A program made the translations under genes and the position numbers. 64,000 nucleotides of DNA from an uncultured Actinomycetota bacterium (GTDB lineage Bacteria > Actinomycetota > Actinomycetes > JACCUZ01): assembly GCA_963697675.1 (NCBI GenBank), contig CAVOOW010000010.1, positions 73,230 through 137,229 on the forward strand, given 5' to 3'. The notes under the pieces were generated by a model. The model saw nothing but the letters and a program-made list of their open reading frames with translations. It was not told the origin of the DNA and searched no databases. This document shows positions 2,692 to 54,660 of the stretch, piece by piece; position 1 is the stretch's first letter; every line of letters starts with the position of its first letter.

Positions 2692-3215
2692 ATGCCGATG
2701 TCCACGCCGGTCGCCCAGGCAGTGCTTGTCACCGGTGTCTACGGCGCCGGCAAGAGCACCGTCGTGGCCGACATCGGCAAGGTGCTTGAGGACCACGGGG
2801 CACCCTATGGTTTGCTCGACGTCGACTGGCTGGGTTGGTTCAACGCGGCGAAGACCGGACGTCGCACCGGCGGGTGGTGCTGTCAAACGTACGGATGGTG
2901 TGCGAGGCGTACTTGGCCGCTGGTGTCAGACGACTGGCATTGGCGTGGTCGATCCGCGATCGTGAACAGTTGGACGAGTTGCGCCTCGCCGTACCTGTCC
3001 CGCTACGGGTCGTGCGGCTTTACGTCGACGCGGCCGTCGTTCAACGACGTCTGGCGACGGATCCCACCCAAGAACGCCGGGAGGATGACCTGCGAGTGGC
3101 GCACGACTGGCTGGCAGCCGGTCGCGGGCTAGGTCTTGAGGACCTGGTTCTTCCCGGTGACCAACCGGTCCGGGAGACAAGCGAAGCGATGTGTCGATGG
3201 CTATGTTGGATCTGA
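2692..3215 (+). pseudogene. P-loop NTPase (chloramphenicol-phosphotransferase-like / AAA kinase family), apparent frameshift near 2870
   Basis: Walker A GVYGAGKST...LLDVDWLGWF in frame 1. The family-typical C-terminus (VVLSNVRMVCEAYLAAGVRRLALAWSIRDREQLDELRLA...) continues in frame 3 as ORF 2835..3215. Confidence 0.5.
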
Positions 3216-3719
3216 GGCTCCGCTCTACGAGAGTGCCGACCTGGCTCGGGACGTGCTCCCGCTCCGAACCGCCGTAGACGGCGCGGGAAACTCCGCGGCT
3301 AACCACATTCAAGACGTTGCATAGGCGCTGTTGGCCGACCGGCAGCAAGCGAAACGTCCGCGCGCGGGAAACGTCATTCCTTGGCGCTACGCGGGGATCG
3401 GGGCGGCCACGACTGTGCTCGCCTTGTTGTTGATCTCCCTCATCTACTTCGCAATCGCCGGCAGGCGCCGGCTCGTGCCCTCCCCCCAGGAAGAGTTCGC
3501 GCTCACCCTCGGTGAGCACAGGCACCCCGAAGCAGAGGGGTACGGACACACCCGCGTCGACGAGGTAATGGGAGAGTCTTCCGACCGGGACAACTGACGC
3601 TTTCGATATCGACGACGGTGTGGCCCCGGCATTGTCGACGGCGAGTTGCAGGTTGGGCCTCAGGCGATTCCGACGTCTTCTCCGTGTCTGCGTGAAGCGC
3701 CCCAGGTTCTCTGCCGCTC

Positions 3720-4766
3720 CTATGCGGGGTGCGGCTCTCGGTTGATAGTCGCGTAGTGGGCTTGCTCGAACTCGTTCGGGGTCAGGTAGTCGAGGCTACT
3801 GTGCAGACTCCGGTTGTTGAACCAGTCGACCCAGCCGGCGGTGGCCCACTCGACGTCGGCGATGCCTCGGTAGGCGCCGGCGTGGAAGACGGTGGTGCGG
3901 ATGCACTCGGTCTTGTACAGGCCGATCATCGCTCTCCATGAGTGCGTTGTCGTAGGCGTCGCCGACGGAGCCGATCGACGGGCGGATGCTCCTCGAGGGC
4001 GAGGTGGTCGGTGAACCAGTGGACGTGTATTGCGTGCCGGCGTCCGAGTGACACGATGAGCTGCCCCGGCCGGACCGGGTGTCCTTCACGCTCGCGTTGC
4101 CATGTCGCCATCCGCAGCGGGGTCATGACCAGTGCGACGTCCGCTTGGAGGTCGGCGCAGTGCCAGGCGACGATCTTCTGCGCGAACACGTCCACGACGA
4201 ACGCGACGTAGACGAAGCCCGCCCACGTCCGGACGTAGGTGAAGTCCATGACCCACGTGCCGGTTCGGGGCGGCGGCGGTGAAGTCCCGGTCGAGCAGGT
4301 CCCCGGCACGTTTGCCGTCCTTGCCGGGGATGGTCGTGCGGATGCCCTTACCGCGCCGGACCCCGTCAAGTCCCAAGGCGCTGTCATGGCCCGTCGACCG
4401 GCCTCCGGGGAGGCGCGGCCGGCTGCGCCGGACCAGCGCGCGTCATCTTCCGTCGCCCGTAGAGACCTTCCGGGGTCATCCGGCGAACCCGCCAACCGCC
4501 TGGCGGTGTCCACGGTCCAGGCGAGGTCACGCACCACGTCCATCACCAGGGCGTCGGTCACGGTGCGGGCCGCGACCCGCTGGTCGAGCTACTTCCAGCC
4601 CGGTAGGTCCGTGCGGCGATCTGGCAGCCCTGCTCGCGCAGGACCCGACAGACCGACTCGACCGCACGACCAGCGCCGCGGCACTCGTCGACGAACGCGA
4701 CGATCAACGATTGCGGGCGGTCGGTGAAGTCGGCCCGGGGCGCGGTGCCGGCCTTGCGACCGGTCC
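3720..4766 (-). pseudogene. IS3-family transposase orfB (integrase core), multiple frameshifts
   Basis: Pieces in three frames: DRPQSLIVAFVDE...; RTTIPGKDGKRAGDLLDRDFTAAAPNR; VMDFTYVRTWAGFVYVAFVVDVF; HSDAGTQYTS; IGSVGDAYDNALMES; IGLYKTECI...WVDWFNNRSLHSSLDYLTPNEFE. Confidence 0.75.
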
Positions 4767-6923
4767 GTTTCCCCGGGCCGCCTCCCGAACCCGGCGTGCA
4801 CCTTTCCACGCACCGGGCTCTCCACAAGTCCCGTCTGGCGCGTGTGGTCGTCCTCATCCGGTGATCGGCCACGGCGACGGGAATGACCGATCCCCGGTAT
4901 CGGTAGCGGGTCGTGCTCGACCTTCTGCCGGGTTGAACAGTTCCCGTTCCTCGCTGGCCGGCCACCATCCGCCGCCGCAGTAGCGGCGGCGGAGCTCCTT
5001 CCAGGTGGCCGGCGGTGCTTGCGCCGCAGCCATCGCCAGACCGTCTGCCACACGTAGTGGCTGCAGGTAGCCGAAGGTCGCCGACGACACCCCGGGCCGG
5101 AAGTAGGCGCACCAGCCCCGCAGCACCGGGTTGAGCTGCGGAGCAGGACATCCAGCGGCTGGTTCACCCCGACCTGTCGGCACAGCGTCTTCACCTTGGC
5201 CATCACGGCCCGCAGGGCCTTCTTGGCCGGATAGGTGTAGACGTAGGACCGGCTGGTGCCCCGCTTGCGGTGACGCTGGATGCGCCACCCGAGGAAGTCG
5301 AGGCCCTCGTCGATGTGGGTGATCAGGGTCTTCTCCGGCGACAGGCGCAGGCCCATCGTGGACAAGCACCCCGGCGATCTCCTCTCGCAGCGCTTCGGCG
5401 TCGGCCCTGGTGCCCGCGACCACCAGGCACCAGTCGTCCGCGTACCGGACCAGCCGGTAGTTGGGCAGACCGTGACGGCGCCGTTTCGCCCGTTCCACCG
5501 TCGTGCTGCCGTGGTCCTCCCGGCGGCCCGGCGATGTGCTCGTCCAGGACCGAGAGGGCCACGTTGCTCAGCAGCGGCGACAGGATCGACCCCTGCGGGG
5601 TTCCGGTGGTGGTGTCCCGCAGCGTCGGTCCTCACTGAGGATGCCCGCCTTCAGGAACGCCTTCACCAAGGCCAGGACGCGTTTGTCCCCGACTCGATCC
5701 CGCACCCGGTCCATCAGGGCCGGGTGCGAGATCTCGTCGAAGCAGGCCTTGATGTCGCCCTCCACGATCCACTCATAGAGCGTGGCGATGTCGAGATAGC
5801 GCACCTCGGCCACCGCGTCATGAGCCCGGCGCTTCGGGCGGAACCCGTAGGAACACGGGAGGAAATCCGCCTCGAAGATCGGCTCCAACACCAGCTTCAG
5901 GGACGCCTGGACCACCCGGTCGGTGATCGTCGGCGATCCCCAGACGACGCAGCTTGCCGCCCGCCTTGGGGATCATCCGCTCCCGCACCGGCAGCGGGCG
6001 GAAGCTGCGGTCCTTCAACGCGACCGCAGCCCGTCGAGGAACACCTCGACCCCGCACCGGCCTCCACGATGGACGCGCCGTGCGCCGTCCACCCCGGCCG
6101 TGCGCGCACCCTTGTTGCCCCGCACCCGATCCCACGCCACCAGCAGGAACGCCGGGATCGGCGACGAGGTTGAACAGATCGTCGAACCTGCGATGAGGAT
6201 CATCACGGGCCCAACGGTGCAGCTTGGTCTGGATCTCCAGTACCCGGCGCTCCGCCCGAATCAGCAGCCGAGCTCCGAGCTCGTCGGTATTCACCGGCGA
6301 CACCTCCTGGCATTCCAGCATCCTCACTGCCGACTTGCTGGCCCCCTTCGCCCTGTGCCCGGCTCTCCCGGCCCCGCGGCGGGTCGTCGCTCGGACTACT
6401 ACGAGGCCTCCGCCCCACCCCACGGCCATCAGCCGGCAACGGACCTGCCCACCCGACCGGACTGGCTGCCCGGCACGGACGGGCGACCGCGGGGCGGTTC
6501 CCACGTTCACCACGCAATCGATCGATCAGGGAGGCGCCCAGCTCTACCCCGGCAGCATCGCCACGCCTACGCCGCAGGCCTTCACCGTGGCCTCCCCACC
6601 GACGGAGCTACACGGCTTCGGAGTTGACCCCCACCGACATCCGGCGTGGCCACGCACTGCACACCGGCCCATATCCACCAGATTTGAGCCGGCGCCGCGC
6701 TTACGGGGCTTCAACCACTGGTTCACTCTCGTACACCTTCTGATCTCGCTCGCCGGACCCGCACCGTCTGGCAGTACCAGCACGTCCCGGCTTTGTCAGG
6801 GCTGCTTCCCGCCCTCCCCGGCGTTCCCCGGGTCAGGCTGCCCCCAGCTTCACCAGGCCGCTGCGACGACCCGGCGGGGAGGTCTCTCACCTCCCTCGAT
6901 CACCACGGCGCCTCGTGGCGCAC
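4767..6923 (-). mobile_element. Group II intron (bacterial class) inserted in IS3 orfA
   Basis: 5' end GTGCGcc at 6923 on the minus strand. 3' end is ...gggaaAC at 4767. Domain V is GAGCCCGGTGCGTGG-AAAG-GTGCACGCCGGGTTC, about 50 nt from the 3' end. Joining the exons restores the IS3 orfA frame (...FFAGEL|DRSQ...). Confidence 0.75.
4800..6400 (-). pseudogene. Group II intron reverse transcriptase/maturase, frameshifted
   Basis: RT motifs FLPCSYGFRPKRRAHDAV, IVEGDIKACFDEI, LVRYADDWCLV, MGLRLSPEKTLITHIDEGLDFLGWRI. Maturase X motifs NPVLRGWCAYFRPG, ELRRRYCGGGWWP, TRYRYRG. These are spread over at least four reading frames. Confidence 0.75.
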
Positions 6924-7249
6924 AGCTCCCCCGCGAAGAAAATCGAAGCCCGGAGAATCTCGTTGTCCTCCTCGAGCCGCCGGACCTTCGCCTTCAGCTC
7001 CCGGATCTGGTCCAGCTCCTCCGTCGTGGCTCCCTGACGCTGGCCGCTGTCGACCTGCGCTTGCAAGAACCAGCGACGCACCGACTCCTGCTCAACGTGG
7101 TTGCGCTTCGCGACCGCCTCGGCCGCAGCTGTCGGCGTCGCGTACTCCGAGACGTGCTGCAGCATCTGCTGGACGCAACGCTCCTTCACCTTCGGATCGA
7201 TCTTCTTCGGCACAGGGCCATCCTCCTGGAACTCAGAAGGAGACGGCAT
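6924..7249 (-). CDS. IS3-family transposase orfA (HTH), 5' exon; interrupted by the intron
   Basis: MPSPSEFQEDGPVPKKIDPKVKERCVQQMLQHVSEYATPTAAAEAVAKRNHVEQESVRRWFLQAQVDSG...LEEDNEILRASIFFAGEL, with ATG at 7247-7249. Confidence 0.7.
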
Positions 7250-7272
7250 CAAACCGAGGCGCTTCACAGAAG

Positions 7273-7441
7273 TGGTGGGCCCCGTGGGACTCGAATCCAC
7301 AACCTACGGATTAAAGAGGAATCGGCCTGGTCAATCCCAGGTCAGAGTGTCCGGTGCTCTTCACCTGCGCGGTCGACACTGGACGATCTCTCGTCGGTGC
7401 CGGCTGGCTTTGGAAGCATTGCGGGACTGAGTGCGGAAAGG
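7273..7441 (+). repeat. tRNA-Lys 3'-half repeat, copy A (tRNA part on minus strand, plus conserved arm)
   Basis: tggtgggccccgtgggactcgaatccacaacctacggattaaag matches the revcomp of the tRNA-Lys T-arm, acceptor and CCA. It is followed by aggaatcgg...cccaggtcaga...cacctgcg...ctctcgtcggtgccggctggctttggaagcattgcgggactgagtgcgg. It directly abuts the IS3 end. Confidence 0.7.
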
Positions 7442-8445
7442 CGAACCTGGCCCTGAGGTCCAGACGCTCGCTGAGGCAAGCAGTGGGTGGTCCTCAAAGT
7501 CCTGAGGCGAGCTCGACCTCGCTCAAGCGCACCGTACGGCTGCGCCGCCGGCCCGCGTGGCCGATGCTCACCCGGCGCGGCTGCACGTGCTACTGCAGGC
7601 CGGTCTATCGATCGTCTGCAGGCTCGATCTGCCGTTGGTGCCGGGAGGTCAGAGGATGGCGCCGCGCGGAGCCACTCAACGGCGGCGACGCCCCGGCCGT
7701 ACAGCACCAGCATCGATCACCGTGGCTGGTACGGAGTGCGCCCGAGTGCTCGGCAAGCGTTGACTGGCATGCTCGATGACCTGCGCGGGCTCGGCGTATC
7801 CGGGTCATCGTACGTAACGTCTATGATATCGCCGCCATCAAATGCACACGCAGCACGATCTCTCCCATGTCCAGTCCCCTAGGCGCCTAGGCAAGAAGCG
7901 GCATTGGAACGCTGGCGGCCGTTGGCCACCGAGCCGCCAGTTCGATGCATCGACTGGCGAGCCCGGAGGTAGCTGCGTCGTTGTCCTGGAGGTCTCATCT
8001 CAGCGTCCCCCGGGTCCACTTCACCAGCATCTGTGTCGTCACAAGCTGTCGGGCTGGAGTCGCAGTACGGCGCACCTTCGACAGGCGGGAACCCCCTCGT
8101 TTGACACAGAAAGGCTATCAGCCGAAATCTTTGGCCGGGCCGGTAGTGACAGGTTCTGTTTGGCGGCGCCATTCGTTTGGATCACGCACCAGGTCAGTTG
8201 CCCGCCCCTCCGCCGTGCCGGAGACAACGTGTCAGACAACCAGACCTAGGCCTACGCCCAGCCCCGCCGGCGGGGTTCGTCGACCCACGCGCTGGGGCGT
8301 GAAGGACAACGTCGCCGACCGGTTCGCGAACGCGGACGTTGTCGCCGGACCGGGGTCTCGTGCACCGCGTCGACTTCACGTTCCACCACGTCGGCTCGCC
8401 GTCAGATTTCGTCAGCGCGTTCCGCAATTACTACGGACCTGCTGG

Positions 8446-12477: not shown

Positions 12478-12724
12478 TGCGGACTTTTGCGGACCGGCGT
12501 CACCTACGACGATCCTCAACCTCAAAGCGCAACGCGCTGACCTGCGGAAACGTGGTGGGCCCCGTGGGACTCGAACCACAACCTACGGATTAAAAGAGGA
12601 TTCTGGCCATCAGCAACGTCCCAGGTCAGACCGTCCCAGTGCCTGTCACCTGCGTAGAGGACACCGGATGACTCTCGTCGGTTCCGGCTGGTTTCGGAAG
12701 CATTGCGGACTCAGTGCGGACCAG
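12478..12724 (+). repeat. tRNA-Lys 3'-half repeat, copy B (native-type downstream flank + tRNA 3' half + conserved arm)
   Basis: atgcggacttttgcggaccg...ctcaaagcgcaacgcgctgacctgcggaaacg | tggtgggccccgtgggactcgaaccacaacctacggattaaaag | aggattctggcc...cccaggtcaga...cacctgcg...ctctcgtcggttccggctggtttcggaagcattgcggactcagtgcggaccag. Confidence 0.75.
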
Positions 12725-16885: not shown

Positions 16886-17004
16886 TGCGGACTCTTGCGG
16901 ACTGTGGTCGCCACGACGAAGTTCAATCTCACAGCGCAACACGCTGACCTGGCAAAACGTGGTGGGCCCCGTGGGACTCGAACCCACAACCTACGGATTA
17001 AAAG
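16886..17004 (+). repeat. tRNA-Lys 3'-half repeat, copy C (flank + tRNA 3' half, truncated by IS110)
   Basis: agatgcggactcttgcggactg...acgacgaagttcaatctcacagcgcaacacgctgacctggcaaaacg | tggtgggccccgtgggactcgaacccacaacctacggattaaaagtccg, then the IS110 leader. Confidence 0.75.
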
Positions 17005-18600
17005 TCCGACCGAGGCCGTGCCGGACGGTGACGACTGATGCTCGATGCGACCGTTTGTGCAGGTCAGCGACCTAGAGCCCTTCGGGCTCGCCGTGGTTCG
17101 CGAAGATTCTCCGTGGCGGCGCGCGCCTCTTCTTGTCGCGGCTGTGGTTGGCGAGGACGCTGGGTTGGTCCGTTCCGGTAGGACACCGATTGCCCTTGTA
17201 GTGCCTGTGAGCGTGTAGGTCAGCATGGTGGTGGAGGGCTGCCACGGGAACCGTGGATTGTTGCCTTGAGCACGAGCGTCAGCCTTCAGGATTTCCTTGC
17301 CTTCCCCGGGACGGGCATCGCCATCGTCCGCGGGTTGAGGAGGAGGAACAGCCGATGGATCTGATGCACCCGCGGTGTGCGGGACTGGATGTGTCCAAGC
17401 GCGACGCGAAAGTCTGTGTGCGGGTGGCCAGTGGCGGGCGGTCGGCTGCTCGTTCCACGGTGACGACCTGGGGGGCGGTGACCAACCAGGTGCTGGCGTT
17501 GCGGGAACACCTGATCGGCGAGGCGGTCACGTTGGTGGTGATGGAGGCCACCGGGGACTACTGGAAGCCGTTCTACTACCTGCTCGAAGACTGTCCGTTC
17601 GAGGTGATGCTGGTCAACGCCCGGCATGTGAAGAACCTGCCGGGCCGCAAGACCGACGTCTCCGATGCGGCGTGGCTGGCTCAGCTCGGGGCGCACGGGC
17701 TGGTGCGTGGCTCGTTCGTGCCGCCCGCACCGATCCGGGCGCTGCGGGATCTGACCCGGACCCGGACCACGATGGTGCGCGAGCGCGCCAAGGAGATCCA
17801 GCGGTTGGAGAAGTTGCTGGAGGACACCGGGATCAAGTTGTCCTCGGTGGCCACCGACATCAGCGGGGTGTCCGGGCGGGCGATGCTGGAGGCGCTGGTC
17901 AGCGGCCAACGCGACCCGGCCGTACTTGCGGAGCTGGCGAAACGCCGGCTGCGCACGAAGATCCCGGAACTGACCGAGGCCCTGACGGGACGGTTCACCG
18001 ACCACCATGCGTTCCTGACCCGCCTGCATCTGGATCTGATCGACCAGCACACCCATGCCGTTGAGGAGCTCACCGCCCGGATGGAGGTGGTGATCGAGCC
18101 CTTTCGTGGCGCCCGGGACCTGATCACCACGATCCCCGGGATCAGCGTCCTGGTCGCGGATGTGATCATCGCCGAGACCGGCGCCGACATGGCCCGGTTC
18201 CCCACCGCGGGGCATCTCGCGTCCTGGGCCGGGACGTGTCCGGGAAGCAACGAGTCCGCCGGTCGGGTCAAGTCGACCAAGACCCGACCCGGCAACCCCT
18301 ACCTCAAAGGTGCGCTCGGGATCGCGGCGATGTCCGCGGCTCGCAGCCAGACACCTACCTGGCCGCGAAGTACCGGCGCATCGCGTCCCGGCGCGGACCG
18401 ATCAAGGCCGTCGTCGCCGTCGAGCACGCGATTCTGATCGCGATCTGGAACATGGTCACCAACGGCGTCTTATACGCCGACCTCGGTGGCGACTACTACA
18501 CCAAGCTCAACCCAGACAAGACGAAGCAACGCGCCCTGAACCAGCTCAGACAGATGGGCTACGAGGTCACCCTCAACCCGCTACCAATCGCGCGGTGAAG
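17005..18600 (+). mobile_element. IS110-family insertion sequence (350-nt 5' leader + recombinase gene)
   Basis: IS110-type DEDD transposase preceded by a long non-coding leader. No terminal inverted repeats, as is typical for the family. Boundaries are approximate. Confidence 0.65.
17355..18598 (+). pseudogene. IS110-family transposase, single frameshift near 18350
   Basis: MDLMHPRCAGLDVSKRDAKVCV...VVMEATGDYWKPFYYLLED...MLVNARHVKNLPGRKTDVSDAAWLAQL. The C-terminus DTYLAAKYRRIASRRGPIKAVVAVEHAILIAIWNMV is in a second frame (ORF 18236..18598). Confidence 0.75.
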
Positions 18601-23084: not shown

Positions 23085-23272
23085 CGCCCGGGACCTACCG
23101 CCGTTCGGGCGCCGGCTGCTGCGCCCCACGGGCCGGCACTGCTCTGCGTCGTACAACCGGTAGTGCTGCATCCCAATGCCCACGTAGATGCGCTATGGGG
23201 CTGACAGGTAACCACGCTGGCACCATCGGCGAGGTTGAGTGCTGGTGCCAGTGGACGTCATCGCAGGTCAAA

Positions 23273-23446
23273 GCGGTGGGCCCCGTGGGACTCGAACCCA
23301 CAACCTACGGATTAAAAGAGGATTCTGGCCGCTGTCAACGCCCCAGGTCAGAGCGTCCCGCTGCCTTTCACCTGCGTAAACGACACTGGACGACTCTCGT
23401 CGGTTCCGGCTGGTTTCGGAAGCATTGCGGACTCAGTGCGGACCAG
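23273..23446 (+). repeat. tRNA-Lys 3'-half repeat, copy D (tRNA 3' half + conserved arm; non-native flank)
   Basis: ggtgggccccgtgggactcgaacccacaacctacggattaaaag | aggattctggccgctgtcaacgccccaggtcagagc...cacctgcg...ctctcgtcggttccggctggtttcggaagcattgcggactcagtgcggaccag. Confidence 0.75.
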
Positions 23447-33014: not shown

Positions 33015-33257
33015 CCGTTGCGGACCGGGCCCGCCAACGACGATCTTCAATCTCACATCGCAACGCGCTGAGCAGGGAAAACGCGGTGGGCCCCGTGGGA
33101 CTCGAACCCACAACCTACGGATTAAAAGAGGATTCTGGTCACTGGCAGCGTCCCAGGGCAGAGGCATCAAAGTGCCTCTCACCTGCGCAGATGCTGCTTG
33201 ACGTCTCTCGTCAGTTCTGGCTGGTTTCGGAAGCGTTGCGGACTCAGTGCGGACCAG
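33015..33257 (+). repeat. tRNA-Lys 3'-half repeat, copy E (flank + tRNA 3' half + conserved arm)
   Basis: gatgcggaccgttgcggaccg...cttcaatctcacatcgcaacgcgctgagcagggaaaacg | cggtgggccccgtgggactcgaacccacaacctacggattaaaag | aggattctggtc...cccagggcagag...cacctgcg...ctctcgtcagttctggctggtttcggaagcgttgcggactcagtgcggaccag. Confidence 0.75.
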
Positions 33258-33769: not shown

Positions 33770-34870
33770 CCGACGCCGCGAGGGCGCGCATCGCCCGCGA
33801 CGAAGGTGCACCCGCTTGGGATGGTCACGGTCGGGTCGCGTCCGGCTTTGTCTCGCAGAGCACCGACCTCGTGAACGAGCTCGTCGATCCACGACGGTTG
33901 TCGTTGATGTCCGATCGCGCGCAGCCCCGCGGTTCGCATCGCGTCGAGCTCTGTGCTGCTGGCCAGCGCCGCCTTGCTTCCGGACCGACAGGCGTTGCTG
34001 TAGCCCGGTCGCGTCGGAGTCTGCGGCGTGTCGCACGGCCCAGGTGGCGGCGCTGGCCGCCGCGCCGTGGAGCCAGCCGCGTTGTTGCGGACTGAGGTCG
34101 CGCCAGGTGTGCGGGCTGGCCATCAGGACGACGGCGCGTGGCCACAGCCGCACGTTGGGCGCGACGAACGGGAGGGTTTCGGGGTAGCCCCGCCAGGTTG
34201 ACTCGCCGCTGTCGATCAGCCCGGACTGGGTCAGCGTCTGACGGTCGCGGGGGTCGACGACCGGGGTCGCGCCCAGAGCCCGGATCCCCGCTTCCTGGCT
34301 GCCCGGGGAGCTGGTGGAGAAGGCTCGTCCGCTCCAGTCGGCGGCGGTGACGATGGGGTGGTCGGTGGCGGCGGCGAATCGCAGACCTCCGGCGAGCAGG
34401 GCGAGCGGCATGACCCCGGTCTTGGCGGGCACGTCGGCCAGACAGTTGCGCCGAGTGGCGCCGGAGGACCTGCGCCTGCAGCTGGTAGGAGTCGATGAGC
34501 AGCGGGACGAGCAGTGGTCGCAGGCTGGTGACTCCCAGGGTGTCGAAGGTGTGCGCCTCCGCCCAGCCGAGGTCCACGCGCCCAGCCGCGACGCGCTGGA
34601 TGACCCGTCGCTGCTCGTCGGTGTCGCGGGCCCGGGTGCGGACCTCGACCTTGAGCTTCCCGCGGCTACGCCTGGTGACCTGTGCCACGAACTCCGGGAT
34701 CGCCGGTGCGCCGACGATCGAGCCGGGTAGCGCCGCGTCCGCCAGCACGAGCGTCCGCTCCGGTGCGATGACAGGCCGTTCTTGCCGGCCAGGGTGCCAC
34801 CGGTGCAGGACGCGAGCAGAACCAGCTGGGCGAGCGCCAGCGTCGCGGAGAACGTCCGGAGGACGCCCGA
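33770..34870 (-). pseudogene. Periplasmic solute-binding lipoprotein (TRAP/DctP-like), at least three frame changes
   Basis: Lipobox LLASCTGG. Then ADAALPGSIVGAPAIPEFVAQVTRRSRGKLKVEV...RVDLGWAEAHTFDTLGVTSLRPLLVPLLIDSYQLQAQVL. A further frame reads PLALLAGGLRFAAATDHPIV...WRGYPETLPFVAPNVRLWP. Confidence 0.4.
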
Positions 34871-35542
34871 GGCGGGCTCATCGGATGTCCACGGTCGGGT
34901 TGCGCAGGAGGGCGACGACGGCGGCCACCCGTCGGTTGACCGTGGGTGTCGTCGTGGATCCCGAGCTTGCGGAAGATGTGCGCCACGTGCGTCTCGACGG
35001 TCTTGGCTCCGACGTGCAGGGACCCGGCGATTGCCTCGTTCGACCGGCCCTCGGCCATCAGCGCGAGCACCTCACGCTCGCGAGTGGACAGGGCGGAGAG
35101 CGGTCCGGCGGCCGCCGCACCCGCCATCAGCCTCGTCACCAGCTCGGGGTCAACGACGCATTCGCCGGCCACGACCCGGCGCAGCGCGTCCAGCAGCGTC
35201 GATGCCTCGCTGACCCGGTCCTTGAGCAGGTAGCCGACGGCCCGCGGTGTTGTCCTCGAGCAGTCGTTGGGCGTAGGTGGCGGCGACGTACTGCGACAGC
35301 ACCAGGACGGCCGTCTTCGGGTAGCGGACTCGGATCTTCTCGGCCGCCACGATGCCCTCGTCGGTGTGCGTCGGCGGCATCCGGATGTCGACCACGGCGG
35401 CGTCGGGCTGCTCCAGGGCGACGAGCCGGAGGAGTCCGGCCGGCTCCGATGCCTCGCCGACGGTTTCGATGCCTTCGCCGGCGAGCAGGCTCCGCAGGCC
35501 TTCGCGGACGATCACCGCGTCGTCAGCGATCACCACTCTCAT
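34860..35542 (-). pseudogene. NarL/FixJ-family response regulator, frameshift near 35240
   Basis: Receiver domain MRVVIADDAVIVREGLRSLLAGEGIETVGEA...VVDIRMPP. LuxR HTH LSTREREVLALMAEGRSNEAIAGSLHVGAKTVETHVAHIFRKLGI is in another frame. Confidence 0.55.
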
Positions 35543-37034
35543 GTTCTCTCCAACTGTGCCGGGCGCAGTGCGCCGGGCCGGTGCGCCACGTGGAGCTCAC
35601 CGGCGAGGGCCGTCACCCGGTCCTCGACCCCGATGTCGTCCATGGACGGCGCTGTCGCGCGTAGAGCCGGATCGCCGTCGTCGAGCAGGCGCACGCTCCA
35701 GCACTGCCGGGGGGTTCGCGTCGCAAGCGTGATCTCCATGTTCGAGGCGTGTCGCCGTCGTGCATCGCCCAGTGCCCACTGGGCAGCGGCGTAGGCGGCG
35801 GCCTCTACAGCGGCGGCCGGATCGCGGGGCTCGGGGCGCGTCGGTCCGCGGTGGTCAACGACGCGTACGACGACCTGGGTGCTGGTGTCGGCCAGTTCCT
35901 GCAAGGCGAAACCGAGGCCGAGGTCGGCCAGCAACGGAGGATGGATGTCGTGCGCGATGGTGCGGACCTGGGCGAGCGCCTCCTTCACGAGCGTGTCCGC
36001 GCGGTCCAGCTTCGGTGCCGACGTCCTGGTCGCTGCCCGCGATCGTCGGTGCGGGCTTGGCCGCGCACCCGGCGCACGGTCATGGCCAGCCCGACGAGCC
36101 GCTGCTGGGCCCCGTCATGAAGATTGCCGCGCAGCTCCCGACGCTCCGACTCCGAGCGCTCCACGAGGCGCTGCGCGGTCGCCCGTGCCGCCGTCAGCTC
36201 GGCTCGGGTCGCGGCCTGCAGCCGCGCGGTGTCGAGGGAGAGCACCATCGCAGGGCGCAACGACCTCAACAACCGGGCGGCCGGCAACGACGCGCGGTGG
36301 TTGACCGCGGCGATTCGCCTTGCCGCGGTTCGTCACGGTGGTCACGGCCCGCCGCGCCGTGCTGTCGGCACCGTCGCTGCCCGGTGGTCCCAGCCTTGCC
36401 CGTCGCGGGTACGTCGTCTCCGTTGGCGTCTACCCAGGTCGACCGTGACTCGGCCCACCACACGATCGTGAGCGCGGGGTCCTTCACGGCGGCGGCCAAC
36501 GTTGCCTGTAATTCGACCAGGTGTCGAGACGCGACCTATCTCCCCGGCCAGCCGGTTCAGTCGTACCGAAGTCGTCCACGATCGGGCTCGCCGCCAGCAC
36601 AGGCACGCCACCAGTCCCAAGGCGCTGGCTTGCGCCACCGCGAACGCCCACGTCCGCGGGGGACCGGTCGTGGTGTCCGCGACGGAAGCGTCCGGCAGGA
36701 CCAGGGCGGCCAGGCTCACCGCCAGCGGGACTCCCACCAGCGAGGCAAGGAGGTCCTCGTGACGCCAGCCGGGACTGCGCAGAATGTGGGCCGGCAGCGC
36801 GGCCGACAGCGCCACCGTCGCGATCAGCACAGCCCGCAGCAACCACCCGCCGGCGCCGAACGGGTCCACGGCCGGTGTCAGGCAGGCGCGCCAGCAGCCT
36901 GGTTCCTCGAACGAGTTCCAGGTCAGCGCGGCGACCAGGCTCGCCGACGCGAGGACGCCAGCGGCTCGTCTCCAGTGCGACGGGGTCGACGGCACCCCCG
37001 ATCCGGTCGCCAGCAGCGCGATGGCCGGCAACAC
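35539..37034 (-). pseudogene. NarL-type sensor histidine kinase (HisKA_3 + HATPase_c), disrupted
   Basis: ERRELRGNLHDGAQQRL (HisKA_3) and ...ITLA...DDGDPAL...MDDIGVEDRVTALAGELHV (HATPase_c) lie in different frames. An in-frame TGA at 36342 separates the membrane N-terminus. Confidence 0.5.
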
Positions 37035-40257: not shown

Positions 40258-41630
40258 TGTGGACTGTCGGCTGTTGCTTGACGGATCTGTTTCGGGTGAT
40301 CCTTGACACTCCGTTTCTGGAATCTAGGGCCGCGGGCCGCTGCCTGCGGCGTGTTTCTTGCGGATGGGTCGGTTGCTGGTGCGGGCCACCGTCTTGACGA
40401 GCTGACTGCCGACCCAGAACTGCAGCAGGTCGCCGGTGACCAGCACGTCGCAGGGCGAGCCGCTGTAGTTCTTCCCGACACTGACTTGTTGGTAGCCGAC
40501 GCAGACGATGCCGTTGGCGGCGACCTTGCGGGAGACCCACGCGTCGCCGTCGCGTTGCGCTGCCCGCGGTGCCGGGACCCGCCCGACCGGGCTCAACGCG
40601 GTGGTCTCTGTGGGGTGGAACCGGCTGTCCGGGGTCGCGTTGCCCAGTGACTGGTGGGGTCGGGCCTGGTTGTAGTAGTCGACCCATTCGTCCAACGCGG
40701 CCTGGGCGATCCGCAGGCTGGTGAACACCTGGGTGGTGTCGAACTCGGTGCGCATACTGCGGTGGAACCGTTCGATCTTCCCGGTGGTGGTCGGGGACCG
40801 TGGCGCGGTGAGCAGGTGCTCGATCCCGTTCTCCCGGCAGATCCGGTCGAACAGCACCTCCACCGGCGGGTGGTGGAACCGGCCGGTGAACACCTTCCCG
40901 TTATCGGTCAGGATCTGCTCCGGGACCCCGTGCGCGCGCAGCGCCGCAGCCAGGCCGTCACAGACCAGCTGGGTGCGTTCCCGGGGCATCAACCGGGCCG
41001 ACACGCAGAACCTCGAGTGGTCATCGACCCCGGTCAACGCCTTTGACGGTCGACCCGTCGGCGAGCAGGAACCCGCCGACCACATCGAGCTGCCACAGCT
41101 CCATCGGCGCGGCCCGTTCCCAGCGTTTCCACTTCTGCGCCCGGCGCCGGCGCGACACGGGGTCGATCACCCCGGCCCGGACCAGGGCGCGGTAGATCGC
41201 CGACTCCGAAGGCACCGGGTCCACCCCCAGCCTGGTCAGCTCGAGCCGGATCCGCCGCGGCCCCCAATACGGGCGGGCCCGGCGCAGCTCGAGCACCCGC
41301 GCCGCCAGCTCGCGCCGGCAGCTGGTGCGGGCACGAGTTCGGCCGGTGCGACCGGTCCCCCAGGCCCTCCAGGCCCTGGGCCTCATAGCGGGCCAGCCAC
41401 GCGTGCAGCGTCTGCCGGCTCACCTTCCACTGCCCGGCCACCTCGGTGACCGTTCGGCCGTCGCTGATCACTGCCAGCACAGCCTGATACCGCTGCTCAG
41501 CCACGCTCATCTCCCTCATACAAGGGAGTGTCAAGAATCAGCCGAAGTAGCTGTCAACCATCAGCCGAACATGTGTAAAGCCTCAACCGATGCCGAACTG
41601 TCAAGCATCAGCCGAGGCCTTACACAGAAG
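40258..41630 (-). mobile_element. IS481-family insertion sequence
   Basis: Imperfect terminal inverted repeats tgtggactgtcggctgttgcttgacgg (40258-40284) and ctgtcaagcatcagccgaggccttacaca (41600-41628). Flanking direct repeat ggtgggcc on both sides. Confidence 0.7.
40324..41534 (-). pseudogene. IS481-family transposase, two frameshifts
   Basis: HTH MSVAEQRYQAVLAVISDGRTVTEVAGQWKVSRQTLHAWLARYEAQGLEGL; ARVLELRRARPYWGPRRIRLEL...MELWQLD; DDE core TDNGKVFTG...TAPRSPTTTGKIERFHRSM. These lie in three frames. Confidence 0.75.
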
Positions 41631-41633
41631 GGG

Positions 41634-41707
41634 TGGGCCCCGTGGGACTCGAACCCACAACCTACGGATTAAAAGTCCGCAGCTCTGCCTGGTTGAGCTA
41701 GAGGCCC
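41634..41707 (-). tRNA. tRNA-Lys (anticodon UUU), the only complete copy
   Basis: The minus strand reads gggcctc-ta-gctcaaccaggcagagc-t-gcgga-cttTTTaa-tccgt-aggtt-gtgggttcgagtcccac-ggggccc-a. The 7-bp acceptor includes one G-U pair. The encoded CCA has been replaced by IS481 sequence (acc c). Confidence 0.8.
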
Positions 41708-53301: not shown

Positions 53302-53429
53302 GCCTCCCTCCCCCTCTTCCAAGTCGATCACCCCTCCCCTTTCAAAGTCGATCATGCAGTAACCGACATGCCCTCGCATCGCCGCAGGCCAGCGCGCTGC
53401 ACTTAGAAGTCGATCATGCAGTAACCGAC
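53302..53429 (+). repeat. Left compound inverted repeat of the DUF559 element
   Basis: cctccctcccc...ccaagtcgatca...cccctcccctttcaaagtcgatcatgcagtaaccgac (x2). Reverse-complementary to 54518..54660. Confidence 0.65.
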
Positions 53430-53522
53430 GAGGCCTTGCCGGCGGTGCCTCGCCGCGAGCCGCCGGGCGCAGCCTGTGGAGAACTCCGCGGTCGAAAGCG
53501 CGGCATCGACCACCCTTGACTT

Positions 53523-54533
53523 GTGTCGACGTACTGCGCAGTTTTTGGCACCGCGCCCTTCACGTTGCGTGACGCGAAGGCTGTGGGGTGGTCGCAGAGA
53601 GATCTCCGAGGTTTCGTACGCGCCGGGCTCATCAGACGGGTGCTGCACGGCGTGTACGTCGACGCGACTGTCGACGATGACCTGGCTTCGCGGGCGGCCG
53701 CCCTCGCCAAGGTTGTGCCGAGCGGGGACGTGATCTGCTTGCGTACGGCAGGCTGGCTGTGGAGCGCTGACGTGTTGCCGATCGGCGCGCATCGCGAGAT
53801 TCCTCCCGTGGATCTCATGGCGCCGAGTGGCGCTGCTGGACCTCGCCGCGCCGGCTGTCGCGGCCGGACAGGACCAATTGCTTCGTACGACATGATGAAT
53901 GTGCAGGGCGTTCTCGTTACCCCACCGGCGCGAACCACCGCCGACCTGCTGCGGCTGCTCCGGCGACCAGATGCCCTGGCGGCCGGGGACGCCATGCGTC
54001 GCGCGACCGGGGTCGAGCCCACTGCCGTCGCCGAGGTGCTAGATCGCTTCCGAGGGCAACGCGGTGTCGTGCAGGCGCGCGAGCTGCTCGAGCTCTCCGA
54101 CCCGCGCGCCGAGTCGCCGCAGGAGAGCCGCACCAGGCTGCGTTGCGTCGATGCGGGGTTTCCGTGCCCGGAGCCGCAGATCGAGGTGTTCGACGCGGCC
54201 GGGGAGTTTCTGGCGCGCCTCGACATGGGCTATCGCAAGGAGCGCAAGGCTCTCGAGTTCGACGGGGCCGAATATCACTACACGCTCGAACGGGTGCGCC
54301 ACGATCAGAGGCGCCGCGAAGCAGTCGAGCGCGTGGGTTGGGCAGTCAGCGTGGTCACCACTGAACACGTCTTGGGCCGTGGGCTTGTCTTTGAGAGGGT
54401 CGTGTCCGAGTTGCTAGGGGTGGTGCCGCGACTGACCCGCCACCATCCGCGGTACGGAGGTTGGGACGTCGGTGAGCCGTCGTGGCCAACGGTCCGAGGT
54501 GCTCGACATGGCGCAATGTCGGTTACTGCATGA
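53523..54533 (+). CDS. DUF559 / AbiEi-like domain protein (REP13E12-type repeat protein)
   Basis: C-terminal EVFDAAGEFLARLDMGYRKERKALEFDGAEYHYTLERVRHDQRRREAVERVGWAV (DUF559). Confidence 0.6.
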   Translation: MSTYCAVFGTAPFTLRDAKAVGWSQRDLRGFVRAGLIRRVLHGVYVDATVDDDLASRAAALAKVVPSGDVICLRTAGWLWSADVLPIGAHREIPPVDLMAPSGAAGPRRAGCRGRTGPIASYDMMNVQGVLVTPPARTTADLLRLLRRPDALAAGDAMRRATGVEPTAVAEVLDRFRGQRGVVQARELLELSDPRAESPQESRTRLRCVDAGFPCPEPQIEVFDAAGEFLARLDMGYRKERKALEFDGAEYHYTLERVRHDQRRREAVERVGWAVSVVTTEHVLGRGLVFERVVSELLGVVPRLTRHHPRYGGWDVGEPSWPTVRGARHGAMSVTA

Positions 54534-54660
54534 TCGATTTCTATATGCGGGGCGCTGACCTGCGGCGATCGGAGGGCATGTCGGTTACTGCATGATCGAC
54601 TTTGAAAGGGGGAGGGCGACTTTGAAGGGGGGAGGGGCGACTTTGAAAAGGGGAGGGCTG
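54518..54660 (+). repeat. Right compound inverted repeat of the DUF559 element
   Basis: gtcggttactgcatgatcga (x2) followed by cgactttgaaagggggaggg (x3). Confidence 0.65.

Follow-up and report, generated by a model that had tools for sequence, protein, structure and literature searches.

Group II introns in insertion sequences

Homing into the transposase genes of insertion sequences is textbook behaviour for group II introns as retroelements. Among the described systems, E.c.I4 from Escherichia and Shigella homes to specific positions in the IS3-like transposase genes of IS629, IS911, ISEc16 and ISEc31 (PMC3522654). RmInt1 from Sinorhizobium meliloti homes into ISRm2011-2, and its natural copies become inactivated (PMC1802570, PMC4238363, PMC4496777).

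We analyzed a window of 64,000 nucleotides from an uncultured Actinomycetota bacterium, in which an initial annotation had proposed a group II intron nested inside an IS3 element, both apparently decayed. The nesting stands: we put the probability of a genuine intron-in-IS3, with intron boundaries 6923→4724 inside an element running 7266→3690 on the minus strand, at about 97% (Table 1). The decay holds only for the reading frames as written. The window intron resembles E.c.I4 in naturally targeting conserved parts of IS3-family transposase genes, a likeness in target type, and the two differ in host phylum. With RmInt1 it shares an insertion-sequence host and a transposase expression that would depend on splicing. 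However, the host of RmInt1 differs from the IS3-family element of the window, and the natural inactivation reported for RmInt1 consists of point mutations and 3′ truncation, whereas the window copy carries dense frameshifts.

Further copies exist in other records. The same intron occupies the same IS3 site in Gordonia aichiensis NBRC 108223 (L001), a Micropruina MAG (L002) and locus L004, and an exact-junction metagenome scan returned six contigs with the identical junction at 74-79% identity. In plasmid pYA7-1b of Arthrobacter sp. YA7-1 (NZ_CP110116.1, 76405-79897), the succession is annotated as transposase, ltrA and IS3 transposase. The Arthrobacter, Gordonia and Micropruina copies belong to the same intron lineage (approximately 79% DNA identity) and the same IS3 lineage as the window copy, have the same orientation and share its insertion point in the orfA/orfB overlap, ...TTCTTCGCG(A/G)GGGA(G/A)CT|CGACC.... 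The pYA7-1b annotation gives ltrA (494 aa) and the two transposase ORFs as intact genes, whereas approximately 30 indels of 1-2 nt are spread across the intron and IS3 sequence of the window as given and, as written, prevent translation of both the intron protein and the transposase. The intron-in-IS3 arrangement is already known, and it is present in intact, annotated form in public actinobacterial records.

Table 1. Features of the intron, its IS3 host and the adjoining repeat, in window coordinates
Feature	Position	Strand	Remarks
IS3-family insertion sequence including intron	3690..7266	-	1,377 nt without intron; homology limits
Left inverted repeat	7239..7266	-	TGAAGCGCCTCGGTTTGATGCCGTCTCC; aligned with L081/L082
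Right inverted repeat	3690..3720	-	...CCTGGGGCGCTTCA(CGC); reverse complement matches left repeat TGAAGCGCC...
5′ exon, IS3 orfA	6924..7213	-	GTG start at 7213, AGGAGG upstream; HTH_Tnp_1; aligned to OrfAB P0185, P0197, P0123
IBS2-IBS1	6938-6924	-	...CTTCGCGGGGGAGCT, in 5′ exon
Group II intron	4724..6923	-	2,200 nt; collinear at 71-83% DNA identity with >25 full-length Actinomycetota introns, common ends
5′ splice-site consensus GUGCG	6919..6923	-	sequence and homology onset
Putative EBS2	6692..6699	-	GCGCGGCG; pairs 6/8 with IBS2 CTTCGCGG
EBS1	6604..6609	-	AGCTCC, hairpin loop; pairs 6/6 with IBS1 GGAGCT
RT/maturase frame	4854..6294	-	RVT_1 and GIIM, no endonuclease domain; at least 11-14 frameshifts, no in-frame stop
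Domain V	4787..4820	-	GAGCCCGGTGCGTGGAAAGGTGCACGCCGGGTTC; RF00029, fold, covariation
Domain VI	4726..4785	-	bulged branch-point A at 4730; fold and covariation
3′ exon, IS3 orfB (rve DDE transposase)	3720..4723	-	~11 frameshifts; stop codon 3720-3722
Copy of 3′ half of tRNA-Lys(UUU)	7273..7315	-	"repeat copy A" of the initial annotation
Example indel sites	6153, 6084, 6075, 6019, 5934, 5623, 5511, 5362, 5138, 5063, 5008, 4878, 4715, 4599, 4441, 4259, 4053, 4020, 3990, 3929

Intron boundaries, RNA structure and exon pairing

The 5′ end of the intron had been read directly from GTGCGCC at 6923, and it is exactly at this base that homology to 35 independent intron loci sets in, ending at approximately 4724. 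The 3′ end, which had been placed at a GGGAAAC at 4767, was off by 43 nt. That motif forms an internal loop within domain VI; the homology of the relatives continues for approximately 43 nt beyond it, and the Rfam match stops at 4724. The real end is …GACTTCAC at 4724, where the RNA closes with the AY-type terminus ...CUUCAC. The intron-less IS3 relatives L081-L083 supply the empty site, ...GGGGGAGCT|CGACC..., which corresponds to position 6924 of the window joined to 4723, and the ligated exon junction would read GGGGGAGCT|CGACCGCCC. Because the empty site joins 6924 to 4723, the re-joined peptide formerly given as …FFAGEL|DRSQGRH… was wrong and becomes ...FFAGEL|DRPQSLIVAFVDE.... The initial annotation had made its reading depend on the recovery of an IS3 orfA homologue by exon re-joining and on intron structure detectable with a covariance model. 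Re-joining restores IS3 orfA/orfB identical to intact relatives, but only with the 3′ site at 4724, and the covariance model detected domains V and VI.

The match to Rfam family RF00029 covered the full model and scored 38.1 bits (E=4.3e-5), 1.9 bits short of the gathering score of 40. At the gathering threshold, Rfam returned only tRNAs in the window; at E<=10, domains V/VI gave the sole relevant match, with no D1-D4 family. Domain V, found where it had been proposed (4820-4787), is a hairpin with the catalytic AGC and a bulge, and has a minimum free energy fold with z=-5.5 and compensatory changes in 22 relatives. Across domains V and VI, compensatory changes affect 27 of the 37 pairs, and the column of the unpaired A at 4730 is conserved in all 22 sequences. 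The 5′ 630 nt of the intron are collinear with the relatives and include three private 1-nt deletions within the first 200 nt. Relatives with different insertion sites show covariation between the EBS1 loop and the last six nucleotides of the exon, and the loop homologous to EBS2 covaries in relatives with exon positions -8 to -15. The EBS2 of the Micropruina copy, CCGCGAAG, is fully complementary to its exon, whereas that of the window pairs less well.

The coding content was recovered by stitching frames together. Frameshifts were placed with a purpose-written frameshift-aware dynamic-programming aligner, as plain tblastn merged frames. The stitched intron protein reached 333.9 bits against TIGR04416 (cut-off 300) and is 83% identical to thousands of actinobacterial group II RT/maturases of approximately 476 aa. 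The stitched OrfAB scored 224.2 bits against NCBIfam NF033516 transpos_IS3 (cut-off 160), with positions 2-369 of the 369-position profile aligned, and it is 70-81% identical to IS3 transposases. The Pfam matches (RVT_1, GIIM, HTH_Tnp_1, rve and rve_3) agree with the earlier view that fragments of both proteins lie in several frames.

Over its whole length, the IS3 element is 89% identical to the intact intron-less L082/L083 and 82-83% identical to L081. Its limits, previously set at 7268 and 3686, fall by homology at 7266 and 3690-3693 instead. The termini are of the TG...CA form, with TGAAGCGCC... at 7266; a conserved CGC follows the other terminus, ...GGCGCTTCA at 3693. A short target-site duplication of 3-4 bp is typical of the IS3 family but not defining, and no matching flanks of this kind were found here or in L081/L082. 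In intact relatives, orfA and orfB overlap, with orfB in the -1 frame, the layout associated with programmed frameshifting in the IS3 family (178-489 and 486-1469 in L082, and likewise in the Arthrobacter copy). The intron lies in this overlap, and the TTTTCTTC stretch at which the two frames overlap in relatives is a few nucleotides upstream of it. The window sequence has an additional G at approximately 4715-4718 that brings orfB into the orfA frame, and the native arrangement is obscured.

As previously described, the element abuts a repeat: its left end at 7266 sits 6 nt from the copy of the tRNA-Lys 3′ half. By eye, six-frame translations beside the tRNA-half repeats revealed no integrase genes, only PPOX-like and OsmC-like genes.

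Origin of the frameshifts

The frameshifts in the intron and IS3 sequence have an unusual composition. Insertions and deletions are about equal in number, and 26 of 28 indels lie outside runs of three or more bases, in runs of 1-2 bases, which rules out homopolymer slippage. Nonsense codons number one at most overall, with none in the RT. In an alignment of eight introns, no other copy has so few private substitutions (7) or so many private indels (11) at otherwise invariant columns as that of the window. After frame correction, the RT has one private replacement at 226 invariant positions (0-8 in intact homologues) and OrfB has four at 155 (0-5 in intact homologues). The closest references, at best 84% identical in the plasmid collection and 74-79% among the six metagenome contigs, are too distant for direct substitution counts. 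Bacterial mutation yields at least several times more substitutions than indels, with more deletions than insertions and widely varying indel sizes. Because the 1-2-nt spectrum and the lack of excess replacements at invariant positions misfit ordinary pseudogene decay, we judged the indels to be most likely technical. From the sequence itself, they are probably consensus or assembly errors confined to the accessory region, and the actual element may be wholly or almost intact.

Dense indels are a regional feature. Core genes amounting to approximately 22 kb of the window are free of frameshifts and covered by Pfam over their full length, and frameshifted accessory neighbours include an IS481-like element, a NarL-type regulator and a P-loop gene at 2.7-3.2 kb. 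GC3-phase HMMs used to map frameshifts across the window were noisy and served as pointers only. The regional pattern runs counter to a technical reading, as a generally poor assembly would not spare core genes, whereas neglect of foreign DNA would.

Under genuine decay, an IS3::intron composite left next to a tRNA-linked foreign DNA array would have lost selection and accumulated real frameshifts; the intron-encoded protein and transposase would be pseudogenes, and splicing would require a maturase in trans. The restriction of frameshifts to accessory DNA, including the neighbouring genes, fits this explanation. So does a possible in-frame TAG in orfB (4590-4592), which could be a true nonsense mutation. 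Additionally, the divergence from L082 at codon positions 1 and 2 of the IS3 slightly exceeds the expectation from the L081/L082 control, which hints at some relaxed constraint. However, from general knowledge of mutation spectra, at least 13 ORF frameshifts should bring tens of replacements and several stops, and the RT has its single replacement and no stop, and private indels (11) outnumber private substitutions (7) in the intron alignment. The balance of 1-2-nt insertions and deletions outside homopolymers also speaks against decay, and we consider it unlikely.

The consensus itself may instead be collapsed or chimeric, built from several related IS3::intron copies in one genome or in several community members; in that case no cell would carry this exact sequence, yet each component would be real. 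Every relative lies nearer to the window copy than to the other relatives, and this central position, together with the fewest private substitutions, fits a mixed consensus; the central position also counts towards a technical origin of the indels. The intron and IS family are hugely abundant in metagenomes (8,000 matches at E<=1e-10), and the nearest HutH homologue, from metagenomes (uncultured Actinomycetes), is just 91% identical, so the window may derive from a MAG. Moreover, the left IS3 repeat departs from its relatives at two positions, toward the end of the IS481-like element at 41626. Nonetheless, neighbours that look single-copy, such as the response regulator, are frameshifted alike, which repeat collapse leaves unexplained, and the flank junctions are clean and collinear with the relatives. 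A collapse of this kind is possible but doubtful.

A further explanation holds that the indels are real products of a region-restricted, indel-only process that inactivates acquired DNA (the IS3, the intron, the IS481-like element and island regulators) and affects neither substitutions nor the neighbouring core genes. We regard such a process as highly improbable. Returning to consensus error as the preferred reading, the "pseudogenes" at approximately 2.7-23.9 kb and 32-41.5 kb carry indels of the consensus-error type and should not be taken for evolutionary decay without read-level support.

Putative mechanism and consequences

Our comparisons establish the anatomy, boundaries and exon pairing of the intron, and the same pair of intron and site is conserved in other genera. 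What is established about group II introns leads us to infer a retrohoming mechanism. A mobile intron with RT and maturase but no endonuclease would have reverse-spliced in sense orientation into the orfA/orfB overlap of the IS3. Its cognate site, ...CTTCGCGGGGGAGCT|CGACC..., would be recognized through pairing of EBS1 (6/6) and EBS2 (6/8) with the 5′ exon. The IS3 transposase OrfAB would then be producible from spliced mRNA only. The intron/IS3 pair of the window brings little biological news. The practical gain is a 3′ splice site corrected to 4724 and a homing site defined with covarying EBS1 and EBS2.

A group II intron within an IS3-family element

The initial annotation had described a group II intron nested inside an IS3 element, and this reading is right. 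Searching the whole window with Rfam at the gathering threshold returned only four tRNAs. In a covariance search, which the initial annotation had named as a refuting test, RF00029 (group II intron domains V-VI) was detected as the only meaningful match in 3,400-7,600 at a permissive threshold, covering the full model at 4822-4724 with 38.1 bits (E=4.3e-5), below the gathering score of 40. Pfam searches of the minus strand of 3,690-7,266 found HTH_Tnp_1, rve, rve_3/rve_2, RVT_1 and GIIM as pieces spread over different frames. Once stitched, the intron-encoded reverse transcriptase/maturase (RT) scored 333.9 bits on TIGR04416 (NCBIfam; cut-off 300) and shared 83% identity along its full length with thousands of actinobacterial proteins of ~476 aa, which contain RVT_1 and GIIM without an HNH domain and are named group II intron reverse transcriptase/maturase by their source records. 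Against IS3-family OrfB proteins the stitched transposase reached 81% identity, and the stitched OrfAB scored 224 bits on NF033516 (transpos_IS3; cut-off 160). This kind of element is already known.

Eighty genomic loci, each encoding a relative of the RT, were fetched, and DNA homology to the window started exactly at 6923 (GTGCGCC...) in 35 of them, in agreement with the 5′ end read initially. The 3′ end had been placed at 4767; however, homology in the relatives continued past this position to 4729-4722, plasmid matches ended at the same place and the Rfam match ended at 4724. The GGGAAAC taken for the terminus forms an internal loop within domain VI. The fold of nucleotides 4822-4724 (z=-5.5) comprises domain V plus a long domain VI, in which one A, at 4730, is unpaired, seven nucleotides from the intron end ...CUUCAC. 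In an alignment of 22 relatives this bulged A was invariant, and paired changes on both sides retained pairing in 27 of the 37 predicted domain V/VI pairs. In the intron-less IS3 relatives L081 and L082/L083 (the latter 89% identical to the window IS3 over 1,377 nt), the empty site read ...GATTTTCTTCGCGGGGGAGCT/CGACC-CCCGCAGTCG... (a slash marks the junction), which is window position 6924 joined to 4723. We regard this comparison as the decisive boundary check, and the intron runs from 6923 to 4724 (2,200 nt). IS3 sequence was thus restored by precise removal at 6924/4723 and not at the 4767 junction, giving ...ASIFFAGEL/DRPQSLIVAFVDECRGAG...; the peptide re-joined in the initial annotation was incorrect, and it happens to continue with the same 'DR' after the junction because the domain VI loop (GGACCGGTCGCAAGG) is similar to the bases that open the 3′ exon (CGACCGCCCGCAATCG). 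By the alignments to these relatives, the IS3 extends from 7266 (TGAAGCGCC...) to 3693-3690 (...GGCGCTTCA[CGC]); no target-site duplication was found around the IS3.

Coordinates of the intron-bearing element and of neighboring features (window positions)
Feature	Position	Strand	Basis or remark
IS3-family element including intron	3,690-7,266	minus	homology, domains
Domain V	4820-4787	minus	fold, RF00029
Domain VI	4785-4726	minus	fold
P-loop (GAGKST) kinase-like gene, overlapping ORFs	2692-3132 + 2835-3215	plus	frameshift near 2840-2870
Fragmented two-component system	~34090-36320	minus	frameshifts
IS481-like element	~40270-41626	minus	HTH_32 + rve + LZ_Tnp_IS481 once stitched; 2 frameshifts
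tRNA-Lys half copies	7254-7315, 12534-12595, 16941-17002, 23255-23316, 33065-33126, 41612-41673		same orientation
True tRNA-Lys(UUU) gene	41632-41707		

Origin of the frameshifts

Frameshift-aware alignment to an intact homologue revealed at least 11 frameshifts and zero in-frame stops in the RT frame. When the intron DNA was aligned with that of seven relatives, 19 indels were specific to the window copy, of which three fall within the 5′ ribozyme part. The IS3 differed from L082 by ~11-13 disrupting indels and contained one possible TAG (4590-4592). Apart from a few in-frame differences of 3 nt, the indels measured 1-2 nt; insertions were about as numerous as deletions, and 26 of 28 indels lay in runs of just 1-2 identical bases. 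At columns where the other seven introns agree, the window copy had the fewest private substitutions (7) and the most private indels (11) of the eight. The frame-corrected RT carried one private amino-acid change in 226 invariant columns (0-8 in the 20 intact homologues), the frame-corrected OrfB carried four in 155 (0-5 in homologues), and the window copy was nearer each relative than the relatives were to one another. Indels aside, the coding information is indistinguishable from that of working copies. Therefore, we consider the frameshifts most likely to be consensus-sequence errors (probability about 0.7), to which a collapsed or mixed-copy consensus could be one route.

Real decay of neglected foreign DNA, as the initial annotation had read both the intron and the IS3, is unlikely. 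It would fit the regional distribution of the lesions, as core genes spanning ~22 kb of the window, including HutH, an MFS transporter, aminotransferases, PrsW, PstS and a 5′-nucleotidase, are intact by end-to-end Pfam coverage, and accessory genes near the element (the IS481-like element, the NarL-type regulator and the P-loop gene) bear the same lesion type. In the protein collection, HutH found at best a 91% identical match, of metagenomic origin, and exact look-ups of two intact window genes returned no identical protein. However, in bacterial mutation spectra substitutions exceed indels several-fold or more, and deletions exceed insertions. Natural decay with 13 or more ORF frameshifts should therefore bring tens of amino-acid replacements and several stop codons, whereas the RT has its single private change and no stop, and the 1-2-nt indels are balanced. 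This odd spectrum and the few private replacements make decay doubtful.

Accessory genes and the tRNA-Lys repeat array

Bridging two frameshifts gave the NarL-type response regulator (~34.1-34.8 kb) full Response_reg and GerE coverage; the histidine kinase upstream of it was spread across at least three frames. The two ORFs of the P-loop gene, which lies between a tRNA-Gly/Cys/Val cluster and the IS3, look like one frameshift-split gene.

The tRNA-Lys(UUU) 3′ half occurs six times in one orientation, and its copy at 7273-7315 lies 6 nt from the IS3 left end. Several copies have common flanking arms of ~60 nt and ~130 nt, and the array looks as if five related elements, each of 4.4-9.8 kb, had integrated in tandem at a single tRNA gene. 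By eye, no integrase genes were seen beside the arms in six-frame translations; PPOX-like and OsmC-like genes were there instead. The insertion point of the IS481-like element is the very 3′ end of the true tRNA-Lys, and GGCCCACC occurs on either side of the element. The left end of this element, CTTCTG/TGTAAGGCCTCGGCTGATGC, is strikingly like the IS3 junction CTTCTG/TGAAGCGCCTCGGTTTGATGC at 7272-7246, and the IS3 left repeat departs from its own relatives (CCCCAGG) toward the IS481-like form (CCTCGG). An intact IS110-family transposase gene (17253-18437, plus strand; DEDD_Tnp_IS110 and Transposase_20) lies ~250 nt from repeat copy 3. Additionally, a ~1.3-kb unit at 53328-54619, between 102-nt inverted repeats (89% complementary), contains an intact 336-aa ORF whose only match is a weak N-terminal one to AbiEi_4; possible identities of the unit are a small mobile element and a toxin-antitoxin-like cassette.

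Target recognition and transposase hosts

The EBS1 hairpin loop (intron positions 315-320; window 6609-6604, AGCTCC) can pair at every position with the six bases that end the 5′ exon, GGAGCT, and the homologous loop tracks its own exon in relatives inserted elsewhere (TCCTGT with ACAGGA, ATCACG with CGTGAT, TCGTAG with CTACGA, GATGTC with GACATC). A second loop (6699-6692) is the putative EBS2, covarying with exon positions -8 to -15; its pairing is perfect in L002, a Micropruina MAG (CCGCGAAG with CTTCGCGG), and 6/8 in the window copy. The intron has the orientation of the transposase genes. Loop-exon pairing, covariation and sense orientation typify retrohoming into a cognate target, by which the intron probably arrived, as expected from what is established for group II introns.

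Introns of this lineage are also found at the identical IS3 site in Gordonia aichiensis (L001), L002, another Actinomycetota MAG (L004) and the Arthrobacter sp. YA7-1 plasmid pYA7-1b, annotated there as transposase, ltrA and IS3 family transposase; the exact 32-nt junction is common to six metagenome contigs. Other members of the clade interrupt different transposase genes, judged by eye from conserved flank motifs: IS3 orfB at 'WVADI/TY' (DDE motif) and IS256-, IS110-, ISL3-, IS630- and IS701-like genes. By the same judgement by eye, the close intron relatives in L011, L017-L019, L021, L024, L037, L040, L045, L048, L051 and L052 nearly always lie in transposase genes of various IS families, with EBS1 retargeted each time. 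In Streptomyces sp. NPDC006602 (L010, 2880-7084), one intron is nested in another: a full copy (2906-5048) interrupts a second, related group II intron ~18 nt from the start of the latter, which resumes at 5053-7084. Judged from these comparisons, the intron-in-IS3 arrangement is not unusual.

The insertion site falls where orfA and orfB overlap; the intact Arthrobacter copy has its orfA stop a few codons past the junction, and its orfB goes on in the -1 frame. Therefore, OrfAB needs splicing. Just past this site, at ~4715-4718, the window carries a G that L081/L082/L002 lack (CGACCGCCCG vs CGACC-CCCG), and the conceptual spliced sequence therefore runs OrfA into OrfB in the same frame, without the -1 frameshift of the family. 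For RmInt1, which resides in ISRm2011-2, splicing has been proposed to control the host IS (PMC1802570, PMC4238363).
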